Shown here one piece after another: positions 1,205-46,837 of a DNA stretch of 46,837 nucleotides; position 1 is the stretch's first letter; the number at the start of each line of letters is the position of its first letter. The stretch lies in sequence record PZ502447.1; one strand, written 5' to 3'. The notes under the pieces are model-generated. The model made no database searches, was not told the DNA's origin, and saw only the letters and a list, made by a program, of their open reading frames with translations. A program made the position numbers and the translations under genes. The stretch comes from a phage.

Positions 1205-1214
1205 TTGCAACCTT

Positions 1215-7860: not shown

Positions 7861-7872
7861 TTTATTTGCTCC

Positions 7873-7896
7873 AATAAAAAGCCCCATTTAGGGGCT
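7873..7896 (-). terminator. intrinsic terminator after inserted gene
   Basis: Minus-strand hairpin GCCCC-UAAAU-GGGGC followed by a U5 run, 3' of ORF 7919..8272. Confidence 0.55.
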
Positions 7897-8300: not shown

Positions 8301-8347
8301 ACTATAAGCCATCCTTGGCGGCGCGTCTTTAGCAAAACGTGCTATTT
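8301..8347 (-). promoter_or_regulatory. conserved promoter module (inverted-repeat motif plus -10-like TATAGT)
   Basis: Minus-strand AATAGCACGTTTTGCTAAAGAC, then about 22 nt, then TTATAGT, then leader ACGAAAACGAGAGG, then ATG of 7919..8272; overlaps the terminase large subunit stop. Confidence 0.5.
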
Positions 8348-13208: not shown

Positions 13209-13631
13209 TCAGATTTTGTTAATTTGCTCAAACTTCTCAAACCAGAAAACAACTGGATCCTCCACTATGGAGATGAGGCCGAACCGCTCTGCCGTGCGAA
13301 AATTCATGCTGCTCTTACGCCCGCGAGCGACTTGAAGAGACACCTGTTCCCTGAACATTTCAAGGGAATAGCAAGTTTTCATGAGGTTGCATGGAGCACA
13401 TGCAGGGTAAAGGTTTTCCATTCGATCAGCTTGTGGTCGATTAAACTCACCTGTCGCCTTCAGCTTGAAAGTTCCTTTCTCCGCTGCCTTCATGCATACC
13501 TCAGATTTACGTAGCACCGGTTCAACATGGTCAGCATGCCAGCCTTTCTCAGGTAGTTCACACCCACAATAAGCGCAGCGACCACCGAACTTGCCCTTCA
13601 ACTCTTCCCTTTGAGATTTGCTTAATTTCAT
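13209..13631 (-). CDS. HNH endonuclease (classic zinc-finger HNH)
   Basis: 140 aa; CAYCGC...HADHVEP...CAPCN motif arrangement of the HNH fold. Confidence 0.75.
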   Translation of the reverse strand: MKLSKSQREELKGKFGGRCAYCGCELPEKGWHADHVEPVLRKSEVCMKAAEKGTFKLKATGEFNRPQADRMENLYPACAPCNLMKTCYSLEMFREQVSLQVARGRKSSMNFRTAERFGLISIVEDPVVFWFEKFEQINKI

Positions 13632-15179: not shown

Positions 15180-15362
15180 TTTCGTTTTCCTTTGTGCCTC
15201 TCGTTTCGATGAGGTAATTATGCCATCCTTGGCGTCATATCGTTAGGCAAAAAGTGCTATTTCCCACTCAGTAGTAATTTAGCTTTCCGATATAAATCCA
15301 TAGCCACCTCAACCTCATCCTCACTGTACCGCGGATGGTATGGTAGTCTACTACCATACCCA

Positions 15363-16030: not shown

Positions 16031-16145
16031 TGTGTAAGATTTTACGCGGATTCGCCGGGGGTATGCATATGTATCTATATAGATAAAATTAGTAGTTTTC
16101 ATAGAAAAACTATCGACCCATCCATACGACCAATCTACACCATAT

Positions 16146-16212
16146 ACATACATATATATAATAATAATAATAATATAGTAAAAGGTTGATATATATAGAT
16201 ATTATTATGTAA
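16146..16212. repeat. duplicated control-region block 2 (copy A) with (TAA)n microsatellite
   Basis: ATATATATAATAATAATAATA...AGTAAAAGGTTGATATATATAGATATT..ATGTAAC; near-identical block at 35404-35468, at the same roughly 120 bp spacing from block 1. Confidence 0.6.
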
Positions 16213-16483
16213 CCATTGCGTAATCTCGCGTGGTAGGCGTGTATGATTCTTCGGAAGCGCACCTCATATACACACCATAACTTCGATAACGTGTATATCC
16301 AAATTGGCTCAGCAAGAATCAAAATCAACTTGTATGGTAGTTCATCCACCATTCATTCACCCCACATCAATCATTGCAAATTCTGCAACAATCAAAAACA
16401 TCATTGCATTCCATGCAATATTGCTATATGTGCAATAATCATGATAATCATTGCAATAGCTGCAACAATAGATAAATCCAACG

Positions 16484-17314: not shown

Positions 17315-17373
17315 AACTCACCGCCACGGATGGCGTATATTTACTCCATCGAAACGAAAGAGAGCAAGAGATC
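17297..17373 (+). promoter_or_regulatory. conserved promoter module
   Basis: AATAGCACTAATTGCTAAAAC, 22 nt, TATATT, then leader CCATCGAAACGAAAGAGAG, then ATG at 17374. Confidence 0.55.
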
Positions 17374-18150: not shown

Positions 18151-19734
18151 ATGTTTGATTTCAACGAAGATAAACTATCTGTTGAGCAGGTTATGGCAAT
18201 CGCTGCCAATGACAACCTACCACCGCTTCGCGTGGCTATTAATGCCAATGGCTATCGACAGTCTCAATCGTTCTGGAAAGCACCTGTCGAGATTGATACA
18301 GGTAATGATAAGTATCCAGTAATCTCACTCGGTAATGATATTGATGTTGTTGGTAAGCTATCGGCTAATATCGCTCGCTCGGTTCAGTTCCCTGAGTCGT
18401 CAGCTTACATGCACTTTCTTGGTTGTGTTTCTGCTGCAATGCTTGGGCGTTTTACTGTCGAGTATCATGGAACCCAACAGCCAACATCTTTGTACGTGGT
18501 AACAAGTCAGCCGCCTTCAACTGGTAAATCAGCCATTAACTCGCTATCAATCGCGCCGATGATTGCTGAGACTGAGCGGTTGAATGAAGTACGTAAACGT
18601 GATCGAAAAAAGATTATGGCTAAACTGTCCGCTCTGGCTAAAGAGATGAAGCAGGAGAAATCACCTTCTGAAATGGCTTCACTTTTTGAGGAGAAGGATG
18701 ATTTAGAGGAGAAGCTCGAGAAGCTATGCGATATAGTATTCCCGGTTTCCGATACTACTCCGGAAGGTCTTGCGCGAATCAACAATCGCCAGGGTAATTT
18801 TGCGGTAATCTCTGATGAGGCTACTAGCGTCAACTCACTGTTAGGCATGACTTACGGTGATGGCTCGAAGAAAACGAACAGCGAGCTCGTGCTGAAAGCA
18901 TGGGATGCAGGTAATGTGTCAATTGCCCGTGCGAACGCAGAAAATAACATGAGCTTTGTGGCTATGGGATGCATCTCCGTAATTGCTCAGGATGAAACAA
19001 TCAATGCCATTATGAATGCTGGTGCGCGTGGTATTGGTGTATCTGAGCGTTTCCTTCTGGTGCGCGAAAAGTCATTCCTTGGCGACCGCGTATTTGTTGA
19101 TGCTAATGGTGATTCAACATACGAGGCTATTGATGGCGGCCTGAAAGCGGACTACTTCCGTCTTGTTCATGAGATTATGAATGAAGTAGAGGTTAAGCTA
19201 ACAGTAAGCGCATCATCAATGCGTTACCTTAACCGAGCACGTCAGGAGATGGAGCCTCATCTTGGTGATGGTGGCAAGTATTCTCACACAATGTTGCGCG
19301 GTGCTCTTGGTAAGTTTGATAAGCAAGCAATCCGCATCGCTTCCGTACTTCACGTTATTCGTAACTGGTCCTCACAAACTGGCTCTAGCCCGCAGAAGTC
19401 CAGAGAGATTGAACTGGAGACAATGCAGGAGGCAGTTATGATTTTCAACGAGCTAAGCAAGACGTATTTGTCATCAGCTAGTGCTGCTGGTCATGCTGGT
19501 GACAATGCCGAGATGAACAAGCTGGTTGATATCCTGATTAAGCAGGGCAAGAATGGTAAAGGTGTTGTTGGTGTTCGCTCGTTGTATGAGGCTGCACGCA
19601 AGGTTAAACCTTTTGAAGCTCAGGCTGGAATTATGACTCGCATTAAGGACCACTTGATTCCTATGCTTGATGAGAAAAACTACACATGCCTGATTGGTGA
19701 TAAAATTTACATTAATCCACGATTGCTGGGGTAA
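18151..19734 (+). CDS. P-loop NTPase, possibly replication-associated
   Basis: 527 aa; Walker A-like PPSTGKSA and Walker B-like FAVISDE; largest gene of the rightward early operon. Exact family not recognised. Confidence 0.45.
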   Translation: MFDFNEDKLSVEQVMAIAANDNLPPLRVAINANGYRQSQSFWKAPVEIDTGNDKYPVISLGNDIDVVGKLSANIARSVQFPESSAYMHFLGCVSAAMLGRFTVEYHGTQQPTSLYVVTSQPPSTGKSAINSLSIAPMIAETERLNEVRKRDRKKIMAKLSALAKEMKQEKSPSEMASLFEEKDDLEEKLEKLCDIVFPVSDTTPEGLARINNRQGNFAVISDEATSVNSLLGMTYGDGSKKTNSELVLKAWDAGNVSIARANAENNMSFVAMGCISVIAQDETINAIMNAGARGIGVSERFLLVREKSFLGDRVFVDANGDSTYEAIDGGLKADYFRLVHEIMNEVEVKLTVSASSMRYLNRARQEMEPHLGDGGKYSHTMLRGALGKFDKQAIRIASVLHVIRNWSSQTGSSPQKSREIELETMQEAVMIFNELSKTYLSSASAAGHAGDNAEMNKLVDILIKQGKNGKGVVGVRSLYEAARKVKPFEAQAGIMTRIKDHLIPMLDEKNYTCLIGDKIYINPRLLG

Positions 19735-24890: not shown

Positions 24891-24974
24891 TTTCTTTCTC
24901 TCTTTGTGTGTTTCGTTTCGATGAGTTTATAATACACCAACTCACCAATTCGTCTTTAGCAATTCGTGCTATTT
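24891..24974 (-). promoter_or_regulatory. conserved promoter module
   Basis: Minus-strand AATAGCACGAATTGCTAAAGAC, 22 nt, TATTAT, then leader CATCGAAACGAAACACACAAAGAGAG, then ATG at 24890. Confidence 0.55.
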
Positions 24975-27384: not shown

Positions 27385-27473
27385 TTTAAATATCCCGACA
27401 GTTTGTTAGTTCGTTGCATTGCTGTATAATAACAATTATCGAACCTATTGTTTAACAAAAAATGCTATTGAGG
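27385..27473 (-). promoter_or_regulatory. variant promoter module in divergent region
   Basis: Minus-strand AATAGCATTTTTTGTTAAAC, about 21 nt, TATTATAC, then leader to helicase ATG at 27384; the plus-strand gene at 27481 starts 8 nt beyond the motif. Confidence 0.4.
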
Positions 27474-27480
27474 TAATGAG

Positions 27481-27954
27481 ATGTGTGAAATTGACAAGCG
27501 AACTATCAACGGCAATAACGGAACCATCCGCACGCAAGACAAGAAACAGCGCAAACGACCGTCAGGCTACTACGTATTGAAAGATGAAGTAAAGGCTGGG
27601 CTACGAGCTCGTCTGGAGATGGTTCTTGATTTCTACGGCACGAAGGCCAATATCGCCAAGCAGTTAAATGTATCTCACCAGACTGTAGAGCAATGGTTTG
27701 ATCGCGGGATGATTTCGGCTCGAGGTGCCCAGAGGGCTCACAATGCATACAAGCGAAATAAGGAAGGCTTTAGAGCTACGTTCTGCCGACCAGACCTGCA
27801 ATTCGACGGAAACGGTAAGCCATTAACGCTTAGATGCAAGAAACGCCATATGCTGCGGGTTGTTACAGAAGCTGAACTAGCAACAAAGCCACCATGTCGA
27901 CCATGGCGCAAGAATAAGATTGCCAACGAAGCAGCACGAAAAGCTAAAGATTAA
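27481..27954 (+). CDS. HTH DNA-binding protein (putative transcriptional regulator)
   Basis: 157 aa, ATG with GAGGTAA SD; helix-turn-helix-like segment TKANIAKQLNVSHQTVEQWFDRG; basic N- and C-termini. Confidence 0.5.
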   Translation: MCEIDKRTINGNNGTIRTQDKKQRKRPSGYYVLKDEVKAGLRARLEMVLDFYGTKANIAKQLNVSHQTVEQWFDRGMISARGAQRAHNAYKRNKEGFRATFCRPDLQFDGNGKPLTLRCKKRHMLRVVTEAELATKPPCRPWRKNKIANEAARKAKD

Positions 27955-28005: not shown

Positions 28006-28485
28006 ATGAACTGGCATGATTATTTTTACTATGTAGATGGCAAATTGCATTGGAAGATTAGCACTGCAAGACGTGTTAAGGTTGGCGATGAGTGCAACTC
28101 ACTATCTACATCTGGCTATTACAAAGTGTCTGTTAATGGCTTTAGGACTTATGTACATAGAGTTGTGTGGGAGATGTTTAATGGAGAACTTCAAAATGGC
28201 GACTACATTGATCATATAAACCATAACAAATTAGATAACAGAATAGAAAACCTAAGAGTAACAACAAATCAAGGTAACTCAAGAAATTGCAAGCTTAGCG
28301 TTTTATCAACAACTGGTTATTGTGGAGTAGCAAAGCTAAATCACGGAAAATTTAAGGCTCACATCAAGGTTGACGGTAAGCAGCTACACCTTGGGAACTT
28401 CGATACTCCAGAGCAGGCGTATAAAGTAAGAATTGAAGCAGAGAGAAAATGCAACTTTCACGAAAATCACGGGTTAAGCAAATGA
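28006..28485 (+). CDS. HNH homing endonuclease (AP2-HNH type)
   Basis: 159 aa; IDHINHNKLDNRIENLR HNH core; N-terminus MNWHDYFYYVDGKLHWK paralogous to the HNH at 9916; inserted directly upstream of primase with an ATGA overlap. Confidence 0.85.
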   Translation: MNWHDYFYYVDGKLHWKISTARRVKVGDECNSLSTSGYYKVSVNGFRTYVHRVVWEMFNGELQNGDYIDHINHNKLDNRIENLRVTTNQGNSRNCKLSVLSTTGYCGVAKLNHGKFKAHIKVDGKQLHLGNFDTPEQAYKVRIEAERKCNFHENHGLSK

Positions 28486-29426: not shown

Positions 29427-29492
29427 ATACCTGAAAGATGATACAATCCACTTTAGCAATTAGTGCTACTTTACAAATGGAGACTTTACACA

Positions 29493-32051: not shown

Positions 32052-32537
32052 TCAGTAGTAAAGATGTTCCGCTTGCTTTCTTGCCTTTAATGCGGACTCA
32101 AACGTTTCGAATCGTCCTAGATGTATTTTTCTACCGTTTACAGTTATGGACGCATCGTATTTTCCCTTATTAAAATGTACACCACCGCACCCCGTCTTAT
32201 TGTTTACTCTTACACCTAAATTGTGCATGTTGCCTGTTCTGTTGGTTTTCAGTAGGTTTGCGTAGGCATTATTTGCTCTATTCCTGTCAATATGGTCAAT
32301 TTCAATATCACCACTCAAAGAACCTTCAACGAAGGCAACCGCAAGCCTGTGAGCTTGGAATCGCTCTCCGTTGATGTTTATGCCTATGTATCCATTCCTA
32401 AGCGAACCTGAATTCGAACCTACATCTACACGCCGCGATGTGGGAATAATCCATGAAAAGATCCCTGATTCTGTACCGTAGGATAGGTGACGCATTGCTG
32501 CGTCAACCACATCTTTTGTTATGTCTTTGTATTTCAT
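32052..32537 (-). CDS. HNH homing endonuclease
   Basis: 161 aa; IDHIDRNRANN HNH core and NKTGCGGVHFNKGKYDASITVNGRKIHLGRFETFESA AP2-like tail. Confidence 0.8.
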   Translation of the reverse strand: MKYKDITKDVVDAAMRHLSYGTESGIFSWIIPTSRRVDVGSNSGSLRNGYIGININGERFQAHRLAVAFVEGSLSGDIEIDHIDRNRANNAYANLLKTNRTGNMHNLGVRVNNKTGCGGVHFNKGKYDASITVNGRKIHLGRFETFESALKARKQAEHLYY

Positions 32538-33660: not shown

Positions 33661-33737
33661 TCCCCATCTCTCTTTCGTTTCGATGGGGTAATGATACCCC
33701 ACCTGTTAATTTTGTCTTTAGCAATTAGTGCTATTTT
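33661..33737 (-). promoter_or_regulatory. conserved promoter module for recombination genes
   Basis: Minus-strand AATAGCACTAATTGCTAAAGAC, 22 nt, TATCAT, then leader CCCATCGAAACGAAAGAGAG, then ATG of erf; overlaps the exonuclease 3' end. Confidence 0.55.
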
Positions 33738-34904: not shown

Positions 34905-35090
34905 TTATCCCTTAATGACTTTGATGTGTTCTGATGTTGTCTTTTCTATCCTTGCGCCAGTTTTCTCCCATTGTTTACCGTATGATAATTCGCAAAATCT
35001 AAAAGCCATGTCATACGTAAGGAATATAGCGATAGGTGAATACGTTGGTAGTATTACTGTATGCGCTTTCAATTTATCAGGCATTTTCAT
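34905..35090 (-). CDS. hypothetical protein
   Basis: 61 aa ORF, first gene leftward from control region B; upstream CATCATT plus leader GCATCGAAAGAAAAC. Confidence 0.45.
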   Translation of the reverse strand: MKMPDKLKAHTVILPTYSPIAIFLTYDMAFRFCELSYGKQWEKTGARIEKTTSEHIKVIKG

Positions 35091-35222
35091 TACTCTATCT
35101 CTCTACGGTTGTTTTCTTTCGATGCGTTAATGATGCCGCACGCAAGACACACAGTCCAATTGGTATCACCGATTAATTAATCAAGTATACGCGTATAAAT
35201 CCGTAACTACGTGTAGACATTT

Positions 35223-35280
35223 CTATTGGTTACGTTTTTCACTGCCTTAGCCCAGCTATAGCTCAATGTAAATGGTGCGT
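35223..35280. repeat. duplicated control-region block 1 (copy B)
   Basis: ATTGGTTACGTTTTTCAC...GCCCAGCTATAGCT, matching 15975-16030 (the palindrome is partly degenerate here). Confidence 0.6.
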
Positions 35281-35403
35281 ATATCGTGTATACCGATCTT
35301 GGCGGATGGTGCATAGGTATGGGTGCCGCGCAATACTGTATAAAATCACATGATATAAAAATTATAACCGGAACACTCAAGAACAGTAGTTACATGATAT
35401 ACA

Positions 35404-35468
35404 CAGTAATATATATAATAATAATAATAAGAGTAAAAGGTTGATATATATAGATATTTTAATGTAAC
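35404..35468. repeat. duplicated control-region block 2 (copy B) with (TAA)n microsatellite
   Basis: ATATATAATAATAATAATAAGAGTAAAAGGTTGATATATATAGATATTTTAATGTAAC, matching 16146-16212. Confidence 0.6.
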
Positions 35469-35554
35469 TATGGCGTATCAAGGCGTAACTAGGCGTATAC
35501 GATTTCCCGCGGATGCATATGGTATACATCGAGTTACATCGGTTACGTGTAACC

Positions 35555-35640
35555 AATAGCACGAATAGCTAAAGACAAAGATTATAGATGATGTATGATT
35601 ACTCCATCGAAACGAAATGCTCATTATAAGGAACAAGAAA
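35555..35640 (+). promoter_or_regulatory. conserved promoter module for rightward lipoprotein operon
   Basis: AATAGCACGAATAGCTAAAGAC, 22 nt, TATGAT, then leader CCATCGAAACGAAA, then AAGGAA SD and ATG at 35641. Confidence 0.55.
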
Positions 35641-35886
35641 ATGACTAACTTAATCAAACTTTCAATCATCGCCGCAGCAGCAATCATGATGGTAGGTTGT
35701 TCTTCTGCTCCGCGACCAGACGGATGGTGTGCAACGCAAGCAAACGGCGTGTGCGTGGCTAAATGGGAAAATGGTGTGGTTGTACCGTCTGGTGAAGTTG
35801 ATGTGCGATACGCTGGTATTGAGAGCAAGGCTGGCGGCGGTTACGGTGGCTCTGTTGCTGACCATGGGTCTAAGGAGTGGAAATAA
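35641..35886 (+). CDS. small lipoprotein, candidate Cor-like superinfection exclusion protein
   Basis: 81 aa from ATG MTNLIK (AAGGAA SD); signal peptide ending in lipobox-like MVGC; Gly-rich mature part; located beside the J/receptor-recognition region as cor genes are in related phages. Confidence 0.5.
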
Positions 35887-36848
35887 TGCCTCAAGGAATA
35901 TTGATTGACCTTAATGATGGAAGGCCACCTATGGAAATAACGGCAGGATTAAGAGCGCCCGCTGTGACTGGCTCAATAAATACAAATGGACTTTCGACGC
36001 CAGCATCATCATGGGATTTTGGTTTAACCATGTCCCCAGGCTCAACAGCATTCTGCCTTCCAACAAAGGCTGTGCACGTTGACGCTTATGATGTTGTACC
36101 TGAAGTTTATTATATGAACGGGTTCCAGAAGGTAAATGACGGAACTGGCAGGATAAAACTTAGTAACTTCAATGGCGCAAGAGGTCGTATAATTGACTTT
36201 GCTGGCAATTGCTTTGAGATACTAGCTGCTTCATCCTCTTCAAGCCCGGGCATACTTGTTGAGAACTCAACTGACTTCCTGGCAATTTCAAGTAATTCGC
36301 GGTTAATGTCTGCGGCGTGGGTTGGTGGAATACAGGTTAACGGCGCCGCCTCACTACCAGTCAGTGGGATTCCATTTGGTAAATGGGATAACCCAAACGT
36401 TTCTCTGGAGAGCGACGGTAATACAATTTGGTGCCGCAACATAAACTACAGCGGCATAGATGACGTTGCAGCAAGTACTTACGTACAGTTAGTGATATTC
36501 AGGAATGACCCTCCAGTAGCTGGCCCAGGACTCACAATGTCTAATAGTTCTGGACAGATTGTTTTTTCAAGCGTCAGGCGACCGTTCGTGCTTGGTGGCT
36601 TTATACAAATAACCAATGGTTTCCAGTCAATAAATGGAGGGTTCTTCCCACTGCTCAGGTGCGGCGCTACAACAAGAGTTACTGGAGGGTATAACAACTT
36701 AAGGTACAAGGGAATATGCATGTCTGGTGGTGCCGTAAGGGCAGTTCCAGGCACTGTGATAGGGAACTACTCAACGCAGACGGGAGCCCAATTCCCATTC
36801 GACACAAACATATCAATGGCTCTACCATTCATACCAAACTTCTACTAA
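35877..36848 (+). CDS. hypothetical protein, candidate receptor-binding / tail-tip accessory protein
   Basis: 323 aa Gly/Asn/Ser-rich ORF translationally coupled to the lipoprotein gene and convergent with J. The function is inferred from position only. Confidence 0.35.
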
Positions 36849-36855
36849 AAGAAAA

Positions 36856-36871
36856 GGCCCCGAAAGGGGCC
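36856..36871. terminator. bidirectional terminator hairpin between convergent genes
   Basis: GGCCCC-GAAA-GGGGCC; the minus-strand side is followed by UUUUCUUUU (3' of J); the plus side has a weaker T tract. Confidence 0.55.
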
Positions 36872-36878
36872 TAATCAT

Positions 36879-39800
36879 TTACCACACTCCAACTACAACC
36901 CTTCCACCATTCGGTAAATTAACTGTAATTCCATTATTGTTAATCTGAACAGTGTTGTTGGTTCCGTTAAACGCAAAGTTGCCGTTACTTGCGTACAGAC
37001 TACCCCTTACAGTTGCATTGTTAAGTTCCGCACTGCCTGACTTATCAATGGCCCAACCCTGAGAACCAGCCACGTAGTTATTAGATTGAATCCGGTTACC
37101 AATCTTCGCGTTAGTGATTGAACCATCCTGAATCACTGCGCTTTGAATGAATACCTGATTACCTTCAACTACGAAAGGCAATGACCACTGACCGGATCCA
37201 GAGCTAATGCCGTTACTGATTGCGAACCTGTTAGCATCGAAAATGAACTGACTACGAACGTTGCCACCAGATCCGGTTAGTTCCATGCTCATCCCTGAAT
37301 TGTACTCAACCCCATTGTAAGTAAGACCCAGCTTAATGCCGTACTGCGCACCAATTGAATCAGCTGTAACGTAAGTATCCAGCTTCTCATTTAAAGCAGC
37401 TTCATTCTCACCGAGCCTTGCAGATAAAGCAGTGTCCGCAGTGGTCCTTGCTTGCGTTTCTTCCGCTAGCGCCGTATCAATCCTTGTCAACGAAGCCACA
37501 ATCTCATCATCAATCTGCGCTTTAAGCTGCGTCAGAGCCTCTACGCGAGCCATTTCTTCGTCGGCGATAAGATTCACAGCCTGAACAAATTCGGCCTTCC
37601 TCTTGCCGTTTTCCTTCGTCATTCTACGCACGTCACCATCATTAGCCAGGGCGTTCTCAATTATTGATTCCGCTTGCGCCTGAATAGCTCCGTTTGACTC
37701 AATGGCATTCTGTTGGAGATACTTGAACCCATCTGAGTTTTCTATATCAACCTTAATATCACCAATGATTGACGACACATCATCGCTTGCCATACCCCTT
37801 ACAAAATCAGTCCATGGTGAGACGTTACCAATCTTGTCAATCAGTCGCGCCCTGTACCAGATAACCTTTCCTGCCGGTAATGTAGTGTGCCAATACTCGT
37901 AACCCGGGTAAGGAACTAGCGTTAACAAACTGGCGTTCTCTGGTGAGTAAGTACCATCACCATTGTCGGCTACTTGCTGCAATTCAGTGTATGACGTATC
38001 GGCTGAGTTTTCAGGGAAACCCCACTTAACCCTAATGCCAAATATTTCATCATCTGAAGCTGTGATTACCGTAGGCTCAGACGGCGTTCCAATTTTACCA
38101 GTTAGGCTTGCTGAAACAATGTCAGACCATGCGGATACGTTTTCAGTATCAGAAACAGCCCTCACGCGAACCTGATAAATACCAGCATAAATACCTTCAA
38201 TATCAACTTCTGTGTTTGCTGTGCGCGGTACGTTAATCCAGTTTCCGTTCTCCTTACGCCACTGTACCGTGTAAGTCTTGGCGTACTGAACTTTGTCCCA
38301 GGTGATTACCATTGTTTCAACTGATAAACCCTGCACAACCTTGCTGTAGCTGCTCACCTGAACATTTTCTGGGGCAAGTAGCGTGTCAGGTTCAACGATT
38401 GACGATGGCCTATCCTGAATGTTTACGCCGTAATCAATTTCGTCGTATTTATTCGGGTCGTACTCGACTGCCGTAATGCTGTAACCGAACGCATCGTCTC
38501 CATCGCTGTCTGCTTTTTGAATCCCGGTCACAACATATTGCTGAAGAGCAAGATTTTCCTTATCAATCGCAAATACTGTGTCAGGCTGAGGAGTAAAGCT
38601 AAACGCTGTATTAAGTTGCAGCGTCATACCATCTTCAGATACAGATGCAATGGTCCTGTACTCTGGCATTCCATCAGGCTTGTTTATTAGAATCCTGTCG
38701 CCAGCAGTAGCATCAATCTTAAATGGCACAAAAACTTGCAACCCACTTACTGACTCGATACGACCAGAAAGGTTAAGGGTGTAGTTGCTAGACCATGCCT
38801 GGTCATTAACTGCAATAACCTCACCAATCATTGGAATCATACCTTCCAGACCAGTAGTGAAACTAATAGTCTCGCTGCGAATGTTCGTCTTTAATAACCA
38901 GCGCCCGCGGCGGTTTGCCTCACTCCTGCGAGTACATCCAATAGCTGTAAGGTCGACCGGGTTGTAACCAAAACGCCTTGTTGCCTCTAACTCGAATACT
39001 GGCTCAACATCCTGTTGGTATGAGTTTTCAACGTCATCAAACTGAACGTTGGCAACCGTGTAAAGTGACTTATCGCTACCAAATGTACGGTTGAACAATC
39101 CATCAACAACGTTGTCATTGGTGAATACGTACGATGGTTGACGCGGCTTATCGACAACAATCCCTATCTGCTCGCCGTCATAGAATGTCAGCCCACGGAA
39201 GATAGAGCAAATATCACGGATTACCTGATATGCTTCAACTTTCTGCTGAATGACAACATCACACAGGTAGCGCGGCTCAACTCCACCCTTACCATCTGGA
39301 ACCATCTGGTCACAGAATTGCGCCGCCTCATACAGACCCCACTTATCAATAGTAATGCCAAGCTCTCGCTGGTCAAGTCCGTAACGCTGATTCGTCACCA
39401 AGTCGTAAAGAACCCACGCCGGGTTATTGGAATACGCCATCTTAAAGGTGCCGTTCCAGGTTCCGCTGTAAGTCCTTGTCTCTGGGTTGTAGTTAGTTGG
39501 AACGCGAATCAACTTCCACTTCTTCTTGATTGAAATCGTCGGGATTCCGTTAGGGAAGAGGTCAGAACTGAACTCAACGTAAACCAGCGCTGTAAGTGGG
39601 TAGCGGAATTTAGCATCAATTACTTCCTGATAGGTCGTAATTTGCATGTCGTTAACCAGCGTCGAACTTTCTGAATCTGCCGTGATCTTACGAACCCTCA
39701 CCAACGCACTCGAGAACTCAGCAGGAAGGTTAACCCTGATACTTCTGTCGTACCCGCTAGTTGTCTTGCCATTAGCTACTCCGCGCGTGTACTCAGTGTA

Positions 39801-40304
39801 TGTAGCGCCATCAACGGACAGGTCAATCGCATACTCGCAAGTGGTACCGTTAAGATCTCCGTTACTTTCCTGATTAATCAGACGAGGCCAAAACAGCTTA
39901 ACCCTAATTGCTGATAGCTGGGTGTTATTAACAGCAATGATGTAAGGAGTTGAGTTTTTAATCTCCCTGTTCACTTGCACTTCCGAGTTAGCACCCTCTA
40001 GCCCGGCAATGTAATCCTGACTCTGTGTGCCAGGGCGAAACTCTGCCGTTACACCCTCGTAGTTGTATGTGCCATTCTGGTTCTGTACAGGAACGTCAGC
40101 AAGGTAAAGGTCCTTTAGGGAGAATGAGCTATCAACCTCACCATCAGAAACAGCTAGCAAAACCTTAACCTTGTTTACGGATATCAGGTTATCAGGCTGC
40201 TCTACAGGTTGGTGCTGCTTTGGCTGTCCGCCCTTACTTCCATAAATCTTAATTTCTTCCGCCATATCACATAGCTCCGCATTTGTTTTGACCATTTGTG
40301 CCAT
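36879..40304 (-). CDS. central tail fibre / host specificity protein (lambda J-like)
   Basis: 1141 aa; segment NYNPETRTYSGTWNGTFKMAYSNNPAWVLYDLVTNQRYGL...DKWGLYEAAQFCDQMVPDGKGGVEPRY closely parallels the conserved region of lambda J. The first ATG lacks an SD, so the true start may be the internal ATG MAEEIK (40265) with a GGAG SD. Confidence 0.85.
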   Translation of the reverse strand: MAQMVKTNAELCDMAEEIKIYGSKGGQPKQHQPVEQPDNLISVNKVKVLLAVSDGEVDSSFSLKDLYLADVPVQNQNGTYNYEGVTAEFRPGTQSQDYIAGLEGANSEVQVNREIKNSTPYIIAVNNTQLSAIRVKLFWPRLINQESNGDLNGTTCEYAIDLSVDGATYTEYTRGVANGKTTSGYDRSIRVNLPAEFSSALVRVRKITADSESSTLVNDMQITTYQEVIDAKFRYPLTALVYVEFSSDLFPNGIPTISIKKKWKLIRVPTNYNPETRTYSGTWNGTFKMAYSNNPAWVLYDLVTNQRYGLDQRELGITIDKWGLYEAAQFCDQMVPDGKGGVEPRYLCDVVIQQKVEAYQVIRDICSIFRGLTFYDGEQIGIVVDKPRQPSYVFTNDNVVDGLFNRTFGSDKSLYTVANVQFDDVENSYQQDVEPVFELEATRRFGYNPVDLTAIGCTRRSEANRRGRWLLKTNIRSETISFTTGLEGMIPMIGEVIAVNDQAWSSNYTLNLSGRIESVSGLQVFVPFKIDATAGDRILINKPDGMPEYRTIASVSEDGMTLQLNTAFSFTPQPDTVFAIDKENLALQQYVVTGIQKADSDGDDAFGYSITAVEYDPNKYDEIDYGVNIQDRPSSIVEPDTLLAPENVQVSSYSKVVQGLSVETMVITWDKVQYAKTYTVQWRKENGNWINVPRTANTEVDIEGIYAGIYQVRVRAVSDTENVSAWSDIVSASLTGKIGTPSEPTVITASDDEIFGIRVKWGFPENSADTSYTELQQVADNGDGTYSPENASLLTLVPYPGYEYWHTTLPAGKVIWYRARLIDKIGNVSPWTDFVRGMASDDVSSIIGDIKVDIENSDGFKYLQQNAIESNGAIQAQAESIIENALANDGDVRRMTKENGKRKAEFVQAVNLIADEEMARVEALTQLKAQIDDEIVASLTRIDTALAEETQARTTADTALSARLGENEAALNEKLDTYVTADSIGAQYGIKLGLTYNGVEYNSGMSMELTGSGGNVRSQFIFDANRFAISNGISSGSGQWSLPFVVEGNQVFIQSAVIQDGSITNAKIGNRIQSNNYVAGSQGWAIDKSGSAELNNATVRGSLYASNGNFAFNGTNNTVQINNNGITVNLPNGGRVVVGVW

Positions 40305-40314
40305 TCTACACTAA

Positions 40315-40338
40315 ATAAAAAACCCGCACTAGGCGGGT
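40315..40338 (-). terminator. terminator-like hairpin between I and J
   Basis: Minus-strand hairpin CCCGC-loop-GCGGG followed by a U-rich run (plus-strand A-run 40315-40322); likely partial, since I and J are normally co-transcribed. Confidence 0.4.
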
Positions 40339-40344
40339 CTTAAT

Positions 40345-40920
40345 TTAAGCGATATCTTCTGAGTAACTCCCAGCACTAAATACAGAGCCGCCAACACTTC
40401 GATAACCGTATGGCAAACATATTGGGTATCCAGCAGCTACAGTGTTAACAGCCGACCCGAATGCGTATGAAGCCCTGTTTTGCGCAGACTCCTGCGTCTT
40501 TAATCCAGTTGCTTGTGGGGAAAGTAACTGAGCTACACCGCCAGCAGCCAGTGAGATACCAGCACCAAGAACAGCGGTTGCAATACCACCAGTAAGGAAG
40601 AAGCTAGCACCAATGAGCGCCGCACCTAGTACTGTCTGGAATAACCCTCCGCTTTTTCTTCCTTGAGGTATTGGCATAATACGAATCTCACCAACTGCCT
40701 TAAAATCCTTGATACGATGTTCATTAAGGTTCTTCCCGTCAGCAAATATTGCGAACCTAGTCCTTTGTCCAGCATGGCTTTGCATGAACTCTTTAAATGC
40801 TGGAATGTTTACCGATAATGCTCGAAGTGCTTCCGGTACAGACTCCACGCACAACTCATGGACTTTCCCGTACCTTCTGCCAAGTGACAAGCCCAGCTTA
40901 ACCTTAATCAGTCTCTGCAT
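40345..40920 (-). CDS. tail assembly protein (lambda I-like)
   Basis: Ubiquitin-like N-terminal half and Gly/Ala-rich hydrophobic C-terminal half; start moved to the internal ATG MQRLIK to remove a long overlap with K. Confidence 0.6.
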   Translation of the reverse strand: MQRLIKVKLGLSLGRRYGKVHELCVESVPEALRALSVNIPAFKEFMQSHAGQRTRFAIFADGKNLNEHRIKDFKAVGEIRIMPIPQGRKSGGLFQTVLGAALIGASFFLTGGIATAVLGAGISLAAGGVAQLLSPQATGLKTQESAQNRASYAFGSAVNTVAAGYPICLPYGYRSVGGSVFSAGSYSEDIA

Positions 40921-41662
40921 TGTAATTTGCTCCTTCTGGTAAATCTTTGTGGCGAACGATTCGAACGGTACGCTCACGCCAGTAATCACTATAGGTATCC
41001 ACTTTACTCATCTTGCCGTAAAGATGGTGCAAGAACTTATTGTCTCCAATGTAGATTCCTGCGTGGTTTGTGGCCTCACTTTGAATCTGCATCATAATCA
41101 TGGAGCCAACTGGAATATCATCAGTTTCGACTAGCTCAAATCCTTCCTTAATCCAGTTGTCATCATAGATATTTTCTCCATACTCCTTGTTCCACCATGG
41201 GTAATTAACGCGGTAGTCAGCCAGTTTGACGCCGTGCTTTGCGTGGAATGACATTATCAATCCCCAGCAATCGAAGCTACCCAAACCCCACGGTCTTCCT
41301 GCTAGCGGCATATCAACTGGTTCAAGGATTCGCAGATCTCCTTCCGGGTAACTAACGATGACATATGGAATCTCGCACTCATTGCAACTGCATATGTCTG
41401 CCGGGCTAGGCCTTGTAGTTGCACCATCTCCAGTGTGTGAGTGAGCTACGTAAACAATTGACTCGCTGTAGCCAAGATTAAAGACAATATTCATGTACTC
41501 ACTGGCGTCAAGAATGAACTCATTTTCAGGGTCTTTCGATGCGTTGGTGATTCTATGGTATTTTTGTGCCATGCCTTTTTGGGTGACTACGCCGCAGCAC
41601 TCGTTTGGGTAATCCTCTTTTGCGTGGCGCATGATTTCTAGTTTAACTTTTGGTGTAAGCAT
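40904..41662 (-). CDS. tail tip assembly protein (lambda K-like, MPN/JAMM plus NlpC/P60 domains)
   Basis: JAMM-like motif HSHTGDGATTRPSPAD in the N-terminal half and a Cys/His NlpC/P60-like half; start moved to ATG MLTPKVK to remove the overlap with L. Confidence 0.75.
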   Translation of the reverse strand: MLTPKVKLEIMRHAKEDYPNECCGVVTQKGMAQKYHRITNASKDPENEFILDASEYMNIVFNLGYSESIVYVAHSHTGDGATTRPSPADICSCNECEIPYVIVSYPEGDLRILEPVDMPLAGRPWGLGSFDCWGLIMSFHAKHGVKLADYRVNYPWWNKEYGENIYDDNWIKEGFELVETDDIPVGSMIMMQIQSEATNHAGIYIGDNKFLHHLYGKMSKVDTYSDYWRERTVRIVRHKDLPEGANYNAETD

Positions 41663-41672
41663 TTTAGACTCC

Positions 41673-42428
41673 TTAGTTCTGGTTATTCTTGGCTTGCAAG
41701 CTAGCGGAGGCACAACCTCCAAATGATAGCTGGTTGTTTTCACCAAACCTTAACTTACATGCATCAACAGTTCCGGCGCAGAAATCCAGGCCAGGGTCAT
41801 CAACCGGATTATTGTCTTTATCAAAGTATCGATTCCCGGCATAATCACAACCGTTACCACTACGATACCAGCCACGAGAAGCCCAATGGCATACTGACTG
41901 GACTAACCTCGCAGGAATATAAATACCATCCATGTCAATTGGACTAGATAGCTCAAAAGAAGCAGTTTTGTAGTCAACCTGCTTTGGTCGCTCAATAAAG
42001 TAAACCATCTTACGATAATCGCCATCTGCAATGCTGCCATCCTCATTGATATTATCCTTGATGGTAACCCAGATTGTCACCTTAGCCTGAACCATACCAT
42101 TATACTGACGGATTAGCGCTGAAACAGCCTGGTCAACGTTTGATAGAATTAGCGTGAGTTTGTTTGCTTTGCCGTCAGAAGTTAGGTTAATTCCGCTAAT
42201 ACCGAATGGCCTTGCTCCATATTCTTCACCACGAAATGTAATTGTCTTGGCTGGCAGTGGCTGGCCAGAGGATTGTGATTGCATGATTTCTTCAGGCGTG
42301 TATGAGATGTTCTCACCATGGAACCTGTAAACCCTTGCGCCAAACTTACTGCCGTCAACCTCAATAAGCGTAACCACCTCACCAGGGAAAAGTGATTGAA
42401 GCTGGTTCTCAAACTTTACACTTGCCAT
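41673..42428 (-). CDS. minor tail protein (lambda L-like)
   Basis: 251 aa; C-terminal Cys cluster (C..C...C...C) as in L-family tail tip proteins; sits between M and K. Confidence 0.65.
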   Translation of the reverse strand: MASVKFENQLQSLFPGEVVTLIEVDGSKFGARVYRFHGENISYTPEEIMQSQSSGQPLPAKTITFRGEEYGARPFGISGINLTSDGKANKLTLILSNVDQAVSALIRQYNGMVQAKVTIWVTIKDNINEDGSIADGDYRKMVYFIERPKQVDYKTASFELSSPIDMDGIYIPARLVQSVCHWASRGWYRSGNGCDYAGNRYFDKDNNPVDDPGLDFCAGTVDACKLRFGENNQLSFGGCASASLQAKNNQN

Positions 42429-42466
42429 ATTCTCTCCAATAAAAAAAGGCCCACATGAGCCTTAGT

Positions 42467-42814
42467 TTAACTCATTGACGTGAAAACTTCAGTAAATTGC
42501 ATACTAACAGTCTGAACTTCTTTTGTGCTCGGAGAGACGCTAATGCTATCCTGCTGAATAACAAAAAGTTTTAGCTCACCCTGCGGCGTAGTCCATGCGA
42601 AAGGTTTTACGATATGGTCAAAGCAGAAGTTCATTACTGCCTCCCACTCACGACCAACGTAGCTAACCGTGTAAGTCCTTTTGTTTGTCCTGTACCCACC
42701 AGTTCCACGCTGCTGGAATCCATTCCCAAATGATACAACTCTGACGTTATTCTGGTTTGAGAATGATAATCCAGCCTGAACGTTCAAGCACCAATTAAAA
42801 GTTTGCAATGCCAT
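42467..42814 (-). CDS. minor tail protein (lambda M-like)
   Basis: 115 aa ORF immediately downstream of the tape measure gene. Confidence 0.6.
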   Translation of the reverse strand: MALQTFNWCLNVQAGLSFSNQNNVRVVSFGNGFQQRGTGGYRTNKRTYTVSYVGREWEAVMNFCFDHIVKPFAWTTPQGELKLFVIQQDSISVSPSTKEVQTVSMQFTEVFTSMS

Positions 42815-42824
42815 TTAAAATCCT

Positions 42825-42839
42825 TAGGGGCCGAAGCCC
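42825..42839 (-). other. intercistronic UUCG-tetraloop hairpin
   Basis: Minus-strand GGGGC-UUCG-GCCCC between the tape measure stop and the M start; duplicate of the element at 32982-32996. Confidence 0.55.
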
Positions 42840-42845
42840 CATTAA

Positions 42846-45818
42846 TTAGTTGTAACCGCGCAAGAACTGATACGCTCTGCCACCCTGTTGGAATGATTTG
42901 CTGATTTCCTCAGCCACGATAACCTTAACTCCAGATTCTATCGCCTTAGCATCATTTCCGCCACCGATTCCAGAGTTTACGTTAACCGTCACACCACCAA
43001 CACTGACATTAGTACCGCCGACAACCCCACCATTAGCATAACCAGATGGCCCACCAACAGCACCTCCATTTGCATAACCGCGCATCAGCTTGTACAGATT
43101 CTTAACACCAATCCTGCTTGTAGCCTCTTTTGTGAATACAAACTCACCACGGTGAACAGTCCCAGCAGGTTGATATTTCCCGCCATCACCAGTATAACCT
43201 CCGCCAGCAAAACCAAGCGCACTACCAATTGAACCAATAGCGCCGCCAGTACCACCAAAACTACTCAGACTTGACTCAATGGCCTTAACAATTAAGAGTT
43301 GAGTCGCAATCCTGGCAATCTGTTTCAGGATCTCAACGGTAAAACTCCTGAAGTCTGCCGTGCCAGTTGTTACAAGGCTGGTGATCTGCTCGGTAATTCC
43401 GGTAAAGACGGAAGTGGTCAATTCACCAGCGATAGAGAATGCATCTGTCGCGCTCTCTGCCCAATTAGCGAAGGATGATTGCACACCAGCAAGCCAGTTT
43501 TCACGTAGCGCATCCTCTTGAGCATAGAAATTACGCCTGGCTTCTAGTAATGCCTGAAAATCAGTATCATCTACAGAACCACCTTTGTTTACCTGATTGG
43601 ATTGAAGTGCCTGAAGCTCTTTTGCTCTTTGCTTCTCCCTGTCAGATAAATTAGCAGCAAGTGAAAAATTATTTGCTTCATTTGTAATCTGCACAGTCTT
43701 CTTAAGGTTGTCATCAAGTAACTTGTTTGACCTCTCCTGAAGCACAATCTGGTCACCAAGTTCAGCCTTCTGTTTAGCCTGTTCAAGAATGATATTCTTC
43801 TGCGCAAGTAGCTTAGCCTGTGATTTTGTAAGCGTACCATCCGCTTGTCTTTGTTCAAGTATTGCAAACTTCGCTTCTTCCTGGAATAACTGCTTTCTTT
43901 CATTGCTTATTACATCATTTATCGTTCTGTGCTCTTGTAAGACCTTTAACTGAGCCTGAAGTGCAAGAACGCCAGATTCATAAGATAAAGTTAAATCCCT
44001 TTCTTCTTTTACAGCCTTTTTCCTCTCACTCCTTGCTTTCTTTATCGCATCATACTCATCGGCAAGAGCCTTCTTCCTTGCTGCAAACTCCTTATCGGTT
44101 GATGCATTATTGCCGCTAAGGTTGGTGTTATTGTTGTTCTCGACATAACCAAGCTCACCCTTCCTGATTCTCGCATCTCGCTCAGCTATGCTTTTTGCTA
44201 ACTCCTCATTTTGCTTCTTAGCTGCATCAACAATCTTTTGCTGCTCAGCGATTGCTTCATTGCCTAAATCGCCAAGTCCAGGTATTGACTGAAGTGTCTT
44301 GGTTGCTGCTATTGCAAACTCGCCCAATAGGATATCGCCGGAGTTTATTAACGACCTTATCTGCTCAATAGTCCCAGCAACAACGTCAGTTATTAAGTTA
44401 AGCGCCCCAAGCGTCCTTTTGCTTATATCATCCCAAATCTCACTTACAAACTTCCTGAAGCTATTCCATGCGCTCTCAAGAGGGTTAAGGCTTAGTGCTA
44501 CGTCTGCTAGCCTGTTTTCCATAACGTTAGCGAATAGCTCAGTAGCTGCGGTTACAGCCTCTGTTTCTCCAGCCGTCTTCCTGATATTCTCAATGTATTT
44601 CAATTGCCCAGACTGAAGGAAGTTGAACTGCTTATCGAGTGCAATCAGACCTTGAATTGGGTCATTTGTAATCTGATCAAAGTATCCAAGAATAGTTTTC
44701 GAGTCTGTTGATGTTACAGTTGCCCATTGTGCTGTCGCCTTGGTTATCTTATCTATCTGCGTAAGAGTCAGATTACCGTTTGCTACCAGGCTGTTAGCTA
44801 TCTCCTGGATAAGTCCGCGCGTGGCTAGTGTTGAACTCTCAATTCCATCAACAACCTGATTTATCTGCGCTGTCGACGTGATAGTTGAGTTGCCAACCAA
44901 TGTTATCGTTGATGCTAGTCCGCGAGTGTTCTTGTCAGCCTGATAAGCAGCAACACCAAGAGCGCCGAGGGCCAAGCCCAAAGTCCCAACAACTGCCGTT
45001 AATGGGTTAATGGCTGCCAGTGCGAACCTTGCGGTGTTAGCAATACCACCAAAGCTATCCTTAATCTGCCCACCCTGCTGAATTGCAATGAGCCAGATTG
45101 GGATGCCGCCAGCAAGAGATGTTCCGATATCTGTAATCTGAGCTGGTAGCTGTCGTATTGCTTGCTTGTACTGACCGGCGCTTAAACCTGACTTAACAAA
45201 AGCGGAGCTTTGCTTCTGTAACTGAACAGCAGATGCCTCGGCGGCCTTGCCAATCCTGTCGATAATCGGTGCCGCTTGGTCACTAACTCCGAGTTGAGCA
45301 GCCTTAAGTTGAAGTAGTTCAGTCCTTGTAAGGCTTGCTGCATTCGCCTCGTTCTCAAGAGATTGAATGAACTTTTGCGCGGCTGCTGTTGCCTTTTCTT
45401 TATCTATTGATGCCTGTAGTGCAGCTCGCCCTTCCTCGCTAAGAGCTGCTTTAGACCTGTTTAGCTTATTTATTTGAGTTTCAATAACAGAGCCAAGCCG
45501 GAAGAACTCATCATCAGGAACTATTCCAGATTCAAACGCCTTGTCTAATTCAGTTGCTGCTTTCTGAAGCTTCTGGAATTTAGCGGCAGTTGGGTCTATG
45601 ACTTGTTGAAGTGATGCGAAAGATTTGCGCTGCTCCTCAAGCTGCCTTGCGGTGTCCCTTGCTTGAGTCTTGGCTACAAGTTCGGCGTTGACGAAGCTAT
45701 TAATGCCTGTTGCAGCTTGCTCGTTTGCTTGCCTGAATTTCTGTAAGGATTGCGTACCCTTATCGACCTGAGCTACGTCGACGGCTAGCGTGATACCAGC
45801 AATTTCGTTAGTTGCCAT
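42846..45818 (-). CDS. tail tape measure protein
   Basis: 990 aa, largely alpha-helical/coiled-coil composition (Ala/Gln/Leu/Lys/Glu-rich) with a Gly-rich C-terminal region; preceded by the G/GT chaperone pair. Confidence 0.85.
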   Translation of the reverse strand: MATNEIAGITLAVDVAQVDKGTQSLQKFRQANEQAATGINSFVNAELVAKTQARDTARQLEEQRKSFASLQQVIDPTAAKFQKLQKAATELDKAFESGIVPDDEFFRLGSVIETQINKLNRSKAALSEEGRAALQASIDKEKATAAAQKFIQSLENEANAASLTRTELLQLKAAQLGVSDQAAPIIDRIGKAAEASAVQLQKQSSAFVKSGLSAGQYKQAIRQLPAQITDIGTSLAGGIPIWLIAIQQGGQIKDSFGGIANTARFALAAINPLTAVVGTLGLALGALGVAAYQADKNTRGLASTITLVGNSTITSTAQINQVVDGIESSTLATRGLIQEIANSLVANGNLTLTQIDKITKATAQWATVTSTDSKTILGYFDQITNDPIQGLIALDKQFNFLQSGQLKYIENIRKTAGETEAVTAATELFANVMENRLADVALSLNPLESAWNSFRKFVSEIWDDISKRTLGALNLITDVVAGTIEQIRSLINSGDILLGEFAIAATKTLQSIPGLGDLGNEAIAEQQKIVDAAKKQNEELAKSIAERDARIRKGELGYVENNNNTNLSGNNASTDKEFAARKKALADEYDAIKKARSERKKAVKEERDLTLSYESGVLALQAQLKVLQEHRTINDVISNERKQLFQEEAKFAILEQRQADGTLTKSQAKLLAQKNIILEQAKQKAELGDQIVLQERSNKLLDDNLKKTVQITNEANNFSLAANLSDREKQRAKELQALQSNQVNKGGSVDDTDFQALLEARRNFYAQEDALRENWLAGVQSSFANWAESATDAFSIAGELTTSVFTGITEQITSLVTTGTADFRSFTVEILKQIARIATQLLIVKAIESSLSSFGGTGGAIGSIGSALGFAGGGYTGDGGKYQPAGTVHRGEFVFTKEATSRIGVKNLYKLMRGYANGGAVGGPSGYANGGVVGGTNVSVGGVTVNVNSGIGGGNDAKAIESGVKVIVAEEISKSFQQGGRAYQFLRGYN

Positions 45819-45832
45819 GTTGTCTCCATAAT

Positions 45833-45856
45833 AAAAAAGCCACCCCGAAGGATGGC
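45833..45856 (-). terminator. terminator-like hairpin upstream of tape measure start
   Basis: Minus-strand GCCAUCC-UUCG-GGGUGGC (one G-U) followed by a U6 run; overlaps the GT stop codon. Confidence 0.45.
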
Positions 45857-46107
45857 TATTTCTTGGCGTTCATCATATCTAAGGCTTTAGCCTCAAGTAT
45901 TCTGATGTCGTTAAGTACCATTTCGTCATCATCTATTTTATAGACTTTGAACAAGAATGGAAGGCAATTATAATCAAGGCCTGTGGCACCGCAAGCCCCT
46001 ACTCGCCATTGAGTTGACATGGCACAGTACACATCCCAGCTTTGCATCATTGTTTCATCGAAGTATAACTCTTCAGGCTCATCACCTTCATAATCGGAAC
46101 GTTTCAT
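45856..46107 (-). CDS. tail assembly chaperone, T segment (expressed as G-T fusion by -1 frameshift)
   Basis: 83 aa ORF in the -1 frame relative to G; the frame entered after slippage at 46173-46179 runs without a stop into this ORF. Confidence 0.65.
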   Translation of the reverse strand: MKRSDYEGDEPEELYFDETMMQSWDVYCAMSTQWRVGACGATGLDYNCLPFLFKVYKIDDDEMVLNDIRILEAKALDMMNAKK

Positions 46108-46169
46108 TCCGATAGCTTCGAGTTCAGCATCCGTTGGCGGTGACTGGTATTGTAAGTATACTGCGCGTT

Positions 46170-46484
46170 TTAGTTTTTTACTCGCTGACCTGCTAGCGCT
46201 TTCATGTAGCTATCCATCAGTGATGGAACGGCACCAGGGAAAAGGTTGGCAAACTCATCTACGTTCTCATCGGTAAATGGTTCTTCTAAATCCCAGTCAG
46301 AGCAGATTTCGTTAATCAATTCTTTAGTGCTGAAGTTTTCACGATTAAGAATCTCCTGAAGTTCAGATGATTTCTTGTGCTTAACTGTTAGTACCACCTC
46401 TGCATCTTCACCATTCGCTAACTGAAACTTAACCGGAAGTTTAAAGTCAGGCAGCGCCTTAAGTGAAAGTTTAAATTTTGCCAT
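46170..46484 (-). CDS. tail assembly chaperone (lambda G-like)
   Basis: 104 aa acidic protein immediately upstream of the tape measure region; ends ...GQRVKN with slippery heptamer A_AAA_AAC spanning the last two codons. Confidence 0.7.
   Translation of the reverse strand: MAKFKLSLKALPDFKLPVKFQLANGEDAEVVLTVKHKKSSELQEILNRENFSTKELINEICSDWDLEEPFTDENVDEFANLFPGAVPSLMDSYMKALAGQRVKN
46173..46179 (-). other. programmed -1 ribosomal frameshift slippery site (A_AAA_AAC)
   Basis: Heptamer AAAAAAC in X_XXY_YYZ register at codons K-N just before the G stop; the -1 frame continues ...KKLKRAVYLQYQSPPTDAELEAIG and merges with ORF 45856..46107. Confidence 0.7.
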
Positions 46485-46519
46485 CTCGTTATCTCCTTTG
46501 TTTGTGTTGAATGATTATA

Positions 46520-46768
46520 TTACTTTGATTCGTTTTTTACAATGTTGTGAGCAACTTCGGTGCACACTTCACGACCATAGTGCAGAATCTGGTTTGTCTT
46601 ATCGCCAGCTACTTTTTCACAATGCGAGTATGCACTATTAAATTCATGTTCATACTTTATTGCATCAGAGTTTGCGGTTTCGCCACCAGTTGGGTTAACA
46701 ATCTGAATTGCCAGGTAGAAAGCACCAAGAGCAGCAGCAAGTTTGATGATGTTTTTAACGTTGTTCAT
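46520..46768 (-). CDS. hypothetical small membrane/secreted protein
   Basis: 82 aa with N-terminal hydrophobic helix IIKLAAALGAFYLAIQIV; has its own promoter module and sits between the major tail and chaperone genes. Confidence 0.5.
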   Translation of the reverse strand: MNNVKNIIKLAAALGAFYLAIQIVNPTGGETANSDAIKYEHEFNSAYSHCEKVAGDKTNQILHYGREVCTEVAHNIVKNESK

Positions 46769-46783
46769 TTCACTAATATCTCA

Positions 46784-46837
46784 TTTCGTTTCGATGAATG
46801 AACTATACAGCAATCCGCGATTTGGTCTTTAACAAAA
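46784..46837 (-). promoter_or_regulatory. conserved promoter module spanning the window junction
   Basis: Leader CATCGAAACGAAATGAGA at 46784-46800 and TATAGT at 46801-46807; the upstream motif GTCTTTAACAAAAAGTGCTATCAAT is split between 46825-46837 and 1-12. Confidence 0.5.

Follow-up and report, generated by a model that had tools for sequence, protein, structure and literature searches.

Among the closest described systems, T1 and TLS package their DNA by the headful mode from a pac site, with terminal redundancy and limited permutation (TLS paper, German et al. 2024, PMC11447400). The same headful picture has been drawn, by digests or PhageTerm, for SU57, KanT1, and the Braunvirinae phage MSK (Rtp-type). 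T1-like phages in general, including Braunvirinae, are described in the literature as virulent and headful-packaging, with terminally redundant and permuted DNA. The TLS paper also reports a 21-nt direct repeat, aaATAGCACnnnTTGnTAAAA, in 18 intergenic copies that run along transcription and lie about 76 nt before start codons. Its authors saw the same repeat in T1, Rtp, and Rogue1, and they considered three options for its function there, namely a stoperator, an enhancer binding site, or an UP element (PMC11447400). That paper is the only description of the motif found in our literature search, and a search of the literature on Drexlerviridae and T1-like phages found no mapped transcription start.

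The window analyzed here is the whole stretch of phage DNA, 46,837 nt long. Its relatives are E. coli siphophages of the Drexlerviridae, subfamily Braunvirinae (among them ES, AN_ECEAS, IMM-001, TR2/TR3, CY1, and Rao1), followed at a greater distance by EC3a, IME253, and the Rtp-like phages. The same phage was not found in the phage collection, in which ES was the best match at about 92–94% identity over parts of the sequence. ES covers about 90% of the window at 78–98% identity, 87% of ES aligns to it, and the two are collinear round the full circle; EC3a (genus Guelphvirus) covers 75% of the window. Judged by similarity, gene order, and the direct repeat, the window phage belongs to the Drexlerviridae (T1-like), subfamily Braunvirinae. 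With high confidence, we read the window as a complete genome, one unit in length, from a virulent T1-like coliphage with headful packaging, written out from a closed-circle assembly that was opened at an arbitrary base.

The first-pass annotation had proposed that 13 nt from one end of the window and 12 nt from the other rebuild a copy of a conserved motif, with a −10 box and a leader, ahead of ORF 46520–46768. The 3′ end of the window, 46825–46837, reads GTCTTTAACAAAA (13 nt) and its start, 1–12, reads AGTGCTATCAAT (12 nt). On the gene (minus) strand, these last 13 and first 12 nt together give ATTGATAGCACTTTTTGTTAAAGAC. The upstream (5′) half of this split direct repeat is ATTGATAGCACT (1–12, minus strand; conserved core from window 7), and the downstream (3′) half is TTTTGTTAAAGAC (46825–46837, minus strand), whose last six bases, AAAGAC, stand where a −35 box would be. 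Followed along the minus strand, the major tail stop codon (42–40) is succeeded by a terminator (stem 35–16), then ATTGATAGCACTTTTTGTTAAAGAC, 17 nt, TATAGT (46807–46802), TCATTCATCGAAACGAAATGAGATATTAGTGAA, and the ATG at 46768. The terminator, AAACCCTCTTCGGAGGGTTTTTTAT (10–35, minus strand), is a predicted intrinsic one with a strong hairpin; it closes the major tail gene and immediately precedes the repeat. The −10 hexamer, TATAGT (46802–46807, minus strand), is close to TATAAT, and the stretch 3′ of it begins with TCATTCATCGAAACGAAATGAG and runs to ATG 46768. The joint copy is perfect, with TATAGT 17 nt on, and the proposal holds as far as the motif copy is concerned, its core being present in many copies. 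The 25-nt length quoted for the motif does not hold: the conserved element is about 21 nt, and the outer bases ATTGA lie outside it. Among the ORFs that cross the joint, none exceeds 27 aa.

The genes near the joint lie nearly all on the minus strand. The major tail (tube) protein gene (40–717, minus strand; Pfam Phage_tail_3, tail tube protein family) is listed as a TTG ORF; its true start is probably internal, because relatives have 216–225 aa. At the far end of the window, the first gene of the next unit encodes an 82-aa protein (46520–46768, minus strand; phrog_22925) that is found identical in more than 20 public contigs. It is followed by the gene for tail assembly chaperone G (46170–46484, minus strand; Phage_TAC_4), at the end of which a slippery A_AAA_AAC lies at 46179–46173. 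The T part of the G-T frameshift product occupies 45856–46209 (minus strand; DUF1799, ORF 45856–46107), the −1 frame being open from 46209, and the tape measure gene occupies 42846–45818 (minus strand, 990 aa). This arrangement agrees with the earlier claim that the gene order wraps, from the major tail gene at 40–717 to G/GT and the tape measure at the far end.

The sequence is continuous over the joint in the relatives. A 614-nt query taken across it matched 167 records, and the joint position is spanned by all records listed; ES, AN_ECEAS, and IMM-001 match in one piece at 100% coverage. The alignment of ES and IMM-001 over the joint is gap-free, and the 21 nt around the joint are identical. 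In the whole-genome alignment, window 35088–46837 corresponds to ES 23320–11572 and window 1–684 to ES 11571–10888. Because these blocks abut, the last and first bases of the window correspond to adjacent ES bases (11572/11571). The order of terminator, repeat, −10 box, leader, and small ORF is kept in ES, EC3a, and CY1, and the exact 25-mer is unbroken in CY1. A search of IMG/VR with the exact 25-mer gave no match; it was later found in CY1 and in public contigs reached via the neighboring protein.

TR2, TR3, CY1, and Rao1 match the joint query in two pieces because of an extra stretch of about 165 nt. In CY1 (about 560–830 of the locus), this additional DNA, relative to the window, lies between the promoter leader and the small gene and holds an ATG-initiated short reading frame.

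Independent assemblies show the same continuity. The 82-aa protein and the G protein are unchanged on more than 20 independent contigs of 20–50 kb (Logan, NCBI, ENA), and, where a contig is full length, the major tail gene is located some 108 nt upstream. Joint-spanning matches at 92–98.5% identity were obtained in 15 of the 16 loci fetched from independent contigs in the same three sources, and the exact 25-mer is held by 15/16 of the fetched loci. A partial genome, with sequence missing or duplicated at the joint, would be in keeping with the greater length of ES (48,315 bp, 1.5 kb longer). We consider it highly improbable, since positions 46837 and 1 align to ES 11572 and 11571 with no gap across the joint, the length differences fall in accessory genes at other places, namely HNH endonuclease genes and, at ES 6391–7851, an ORF specific to ES, and close relatives with about 98% identity near the joint have 46.38-kb contigs.

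Five HNH endonuclease genes are present in the window (722–1231, 9916–10422, 13209–13631, 28006–28485, and 32052–32537), and they look like mobile homing endonucleases. These genes, together with other indels, account for the length differences between relatives. The gene at 722–1231, beside that for the major tail protein, is unmatched in both ES and EC3a; a 160–161-aa HNH gene occupies the same position in some public contigs, and a protein look-up found no record of the window protein itself. The gene at 9916–10422 lies between terS and terL.

The point at which the circle is opened differs from record to record. The ends of the ES record map to about window 11426 and those of the EC3a record to about window 16302. 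In two contigs that are nearly identical (46,381 and 46,380 bp), the 82-aa gene lies about 15 kb and 0.15 kb from a contig end, respectively; because they open about 15 kb apart, assemblers evidently open this circle at arbitrary points. With the collinearity of ES round the circle, the adjacent ES bases at the joint, and 15 of 16 loci unbroken, the earlier claim of a full genome linearized at an arbitrary point is borne out.

An independent 46,380-bp contig of a close relative (GCA_029117145.1, JAEFMS010000025.1) opens about 83 nt from the window joint, in the 3′-terminal part of the gene for the major tail protein. With as many contigs as were examined, this nearness is probably a coincidence. 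An assembly break caused by a repeat at the joint was also considered and is unlikely, the 25-mer being unique in the genome and the neighboring break at 83 nt being compatible with chance.

The packaging genes point in the same direction as the first-pass suggestion that the window fits headful packaging. The small terminase TerS (10619–11143, minus strand) belongs to Pfam PF16677, GP3_package, the P22 gp3 family, and is 57% identical to T1 TerS; the large terminase TerL (8342–9913, minus strand; phrog_38), aligned along its whole length, shares 55% identity with T1 TerL. The portal gene lies at 6583–7887 (Phage_portal_3). The terminase pair is, by sequence, of the T1/P22 pac-headful type, and the relatives are reported to be headful phages. 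In line with a unit bounded by neither cohesive ends nor exact terminal repeats, as expected for this mode, the two window ends share no direct repeat and the joint is continuous in relatives. By analogy, virions would carry linear DNA with terminal redundancy and partial permutation, and the window boundary would mark no fixed end.

If the window ends were instead true termini, formed by cohesive ends or short direct terminal repeats, the motif match would be incidental. Such an arrangement is very unlikely. No direct repeat of 5–400 nt is common to both window ends; the 25-mer is unbroken in CY1 and in 15 of the 16 loci, and the region is gap-free in ES and IMM-001. Fixed ends at this position would also cut through the predicted promoter, which stands between tail genes of one orientation; the terminases resemble those of the headful phages T1 and P22; and relatives lack fixed termini by PhageTerm or digests.

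We propose that TerS and TerL would cut a concatemer at the pac site, predicted near 16337, and then fill heads by the headful mode, which would yield linear, terminally redundant, and partly permuted virion DNA. The circular map is an assembly consequence of headful packaging, and the split motif is a by-product of writing the circular assembly from an arbitrary base. The sequence itself shows only a circular map, which would also be given by a replicon that is circular in fact, for example a plasmid-prophage or a replicative form. It is nonetheless very doubtful that the molecule is of this kind. Integrase, partition, and plasmid replication genes were not found among the proteins scanned (part of the ORFs), and none is listed in the annotated relatives; the segments unmatched in ES carry mainly HNH endonucleases; and the literature presents the family as virulent and headful-packaging. 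Among the other scanned proteins, one is a head morphogenesis protein, and the remaining matches were to a primase zinc ribbon, to a polynucleotide kinase domain, and to domains of unknown function.

The position of the pac site can be predicted from the relatives. In the T1 reference record, position 1 is the pac end, within a non-coding zone between divergent early gene blocks, and a redundancy of 2800 bp is annotated. The matching zone of the window, at about 16,200–16,470, likewise between divergent early gene blocks, is rich in ATTGCA/TGCAAT repeats and holds an A/T-rich (TATTAT)n tract; it resembles the start of the T1 record weakly. This conserved non-coding zone contains the read-derived terminus of MSK as well as the start of the T1 record and the ends of the EC3a record, and it is probably the pac region and perhaps also an origin. 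A listed ORF at 16110–16352 that overlaps the zone is probably spurious. The PhageTerm terminus of MSK lies at position 36,862 of its record, which is marked UNVERIFIED, and the 27 nt that follow it, CCATACAAGTTGATTTTGATTCTTGCT, match 27/27 at window 16337–16311 on the minus strand. Because of this conserved 27-mer (16311–16337, minus strand), the first pac cut is predicted, by analogy with MSK, at about 16337/16338, some 16.3 kb from the window ends. Packaging would then proceed toward lower window coordinates, in the direction of terS and the structural genes. T1-like phages show limited permutation, which begins at a pac site; the site predicted here lies well away from the window ends.

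The arbitrary opening base would fall within an intergenic promoter that consists of the 21-nt repeat, then 17 nt, and then TATAGT. The family repeat has the consensus aATAGCACnnnTTGyTAAAgac (21 nt). The full 25-mer gave no other copy at ≤3 mismatches in the linear window; that search was uninformative, as the joint copy is split by the window ends and the outer bases (ATTGA) are unconserved. A search with the 20-nt core, TAGCACTTTTTGTTAAAGAC, worked and gave six further copies at ≤3 mismatches, with none expected from shuffles. The degenerate core TAGCACNNNTTGYTAA / TAGCACnnnTTGyTAA gave 16 copies at ≤1 mismatch in the circularized window, compared with 0–1 in shuffles. At the same threshold, EC3a holds 17 copies, ES 17, and T1 21, again against 0–1 in shuffles. 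As in T1-like phages, the repeats of the window are intergenic, numerous, and oriented with transcription. On its sequence, the window motif is the same 21-nt direct repeat that has been published for T1-like phages.

The window contains 19 repeat sites at ≤2 mismatches, 17 of which share one layout: a −10 candidate 16–18 nt on (17 nt in thirteen) and a start codon 69–84 nt from the start of the repeat. Taking the window, ES, EC3a, and T1 together, a −10-like hexamer lies 16–18 nt past the repeat, mostly at exactly 17 nt, in 62 of 71 copies, against a background of 6%. A −35 box of the sigma-70 type is not found at the joint, where the hexamer 17 nt upstream is AAAGAC (2/6 matches to TTGACA) and that at 16 nt is AAGACC (3/6); in other repeat copies, the −35 position reads TAAACA or TAAAAC. 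These repeat sites were not called by a consensus promoter scan. TTGYTA was tried as the −35 box and rejected, as the spacer would be 22 nt. In the predicted promoters, the repeat spans roughly −52 to −30. Because of the fixed spacing to the −10-like hexamer, the repeat would cover the −35 region, up to about −52, of promoters that lack TTGACA, and we infer from this arrangement that the split element is part of such a promoter.

From the position of the −10 box, transcription is predicted to start near 46795, so that the 5′ UTR would measure about 27 nt. The conserved leader at this promoter, CATCGAAACGAAA, occupies 46784–46796 (minus strand). Its core, CATCGAAACGA, is present in six exact copies, each at a different promoter (46786–46796, 15201–15211, 17347–17357, 24913–24923, 33675–33685, and 35605–35615), and in eight copies when one mismatch is counted, compared with 0.7 expected. 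The first base of the element, which is identical at the six promoters, lies close to where transcription is predicted to start. These 5′ UTRs could thereby share a signal that acts on stability or translation.

Past the major tail terminator, the joint promoter would restart transcription into the 82-aa gene, the G/G-T chaperones, and the tape measure gene. Such a restart is its most likely role, and it matches the 'transcripton' layout proposed for T1 (PMC11447400).

Several individual repeat copies depart from this arrangement or have unusual neighbors. At 29449–29468 (minus strand), between the primase and tail fiber genes, an orphan copy opposes both genes, runs straight into a terminator-like hairpin, and has no −10 box at the usual distance; it is kept in EC3a (about 32079) and T1 (about 34903). 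At the T1 site homologous to the joint (18800–18870, lying between the major tail and G genes), the repeat is inverted and the small 82-aa gene is absent. The copy at 27467–27448 (minus strand), which would drive the helicase gene, lies in a short divergent gap (27385–27481) beside a helix-turn-helix gene at 27481–27954. This divergent layout would suit autoregulation if the helix-turn-helix protein binds the repeat.

How the repeat works may be considered from its position and base composition. An UP element is an A/T-rich tract at about −40 to −60 that is contacted by the RNA polymerase alpha subunit. The repeat fits this description in position (−52 to −36) and in its A/T-rich middle, and its invariant GCAC is atypical. 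The GCAC lies at about −47 to −44, and a partial palindrome, TAGCA-N5-TGCTA, is centered near −42; in sequence terms, both would suit a protein site.

One possibility is that the repeat is a site for a repressor (a silencing or 'stoperator' site) or for a dedicated activator and not a part of the promoter. The TLS authors left the stoperator, enhancer binding site, and UP element all possible (PMC11447400). The most conserved bases, ATAGCAC, are less A/T-rich than an UP element, the core is partly palindromic, and a conserved helix-turn-helix regulator gene (27481–27954) adjoins one copy. We nevertheless regard this reading as unlikely. The fixed 17-nt spacing to a −10-like hexamer (62/71 copies) is promoter geometry, which L5 stoperators do not show; likeness to the consensus of the host protein Lrp is at chance level or below; and a promoter part and an activator site are compatible, so that only the pure silencer reading is disfavored. 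No phage repressor was identified among the proteins scanned. On sequence geometry, the arrangement favors a part of a promoter over a pure silencer.

Returning to the repeat as a promoter part, we tentatively suggest that the split element could be more than a weak sigma-70 promoter, the repeat being bound by a dedicated factor in place of −35 recognition at some 16–20 promoters per genome. Such a factor might be the helix-turn-helix protein encoded at 27481–27954 or a host protein, and the helix-turn-helix gene is our candidate for the repeat reader. If a dedicated factor does act in this way, the whole Drexlerviridae family would run on a single-motif regulon. Host Lrp was tried as the reader and rejected: the TAGCA...TGCTA flanks fit its consensus, yAGhAwATTwTdCTr, but this consensus is loose, and matches at ≥13/15 number 6 in the window compared with a mean of 13.7 in shuffles.

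In practice, the record is best treated as circular for gene calling and comparison. It could be re-opened conventionally at a T1-type start near window 16337 or at terS. The joint promoter should be kept in the annotation, and no biological meaning attaches to the window ends. For this family, headful packaging and the repeat have already been described, and the result is an ordinary one for headful phages. What the window adds is another set of repeats, with very regular spacing to −10 boxes.

Compared with the TLS repeats, as presented in the sections of that paper available to us (PMC11447400), those of the window have the same consensus, the same intergenic placement along transcription, and a similar distance of about 70–84 nt before start codons, and they fall likewise into subgroups by the middle triplet (TTT, GAA/TAA, or AAA). 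The −10-like hexamer at a fixed 17 nt and the conserved leader go beyond the description given in those sections. The repeats also resemble the stoperators of mycobacteriophage L5 in being short and asymmetric, present in many copies, and oriented with transcription. L5 stoperators lie inside transcription units, have no fixed relation to promoters, and are bound by the repressor, whereas the repeats of the window stand at a fixed distance from −10 boxes. Their fixed 17-nt spacing, and their position after terminators and before genes, do not conform to the L5 type, and the window phage, unlike L5, is virulent.

With respect to the genome as a whole, the window phage shares with T1 and the Rtp/MSK-type phages a collinear set of genes, related TerL and TerS proteins with a P22-gp3-like TerS, a conserved zone at about 16.3–16.5 kb, and records that are opened at various points. 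It differs from these relatives in its extra HNH endonuclease genes. The likeness to P22 lies in the gp3-family small terminase and, by analogy, in packaging in series from a pac site. The pac site of P22 lies inside the small terminase gene, whereas that of T1-like phages lies in a non-coding zone upstream of terS, at a distance of about 8.4 kb in T1 and, as we infer, about 5.2 kb here.
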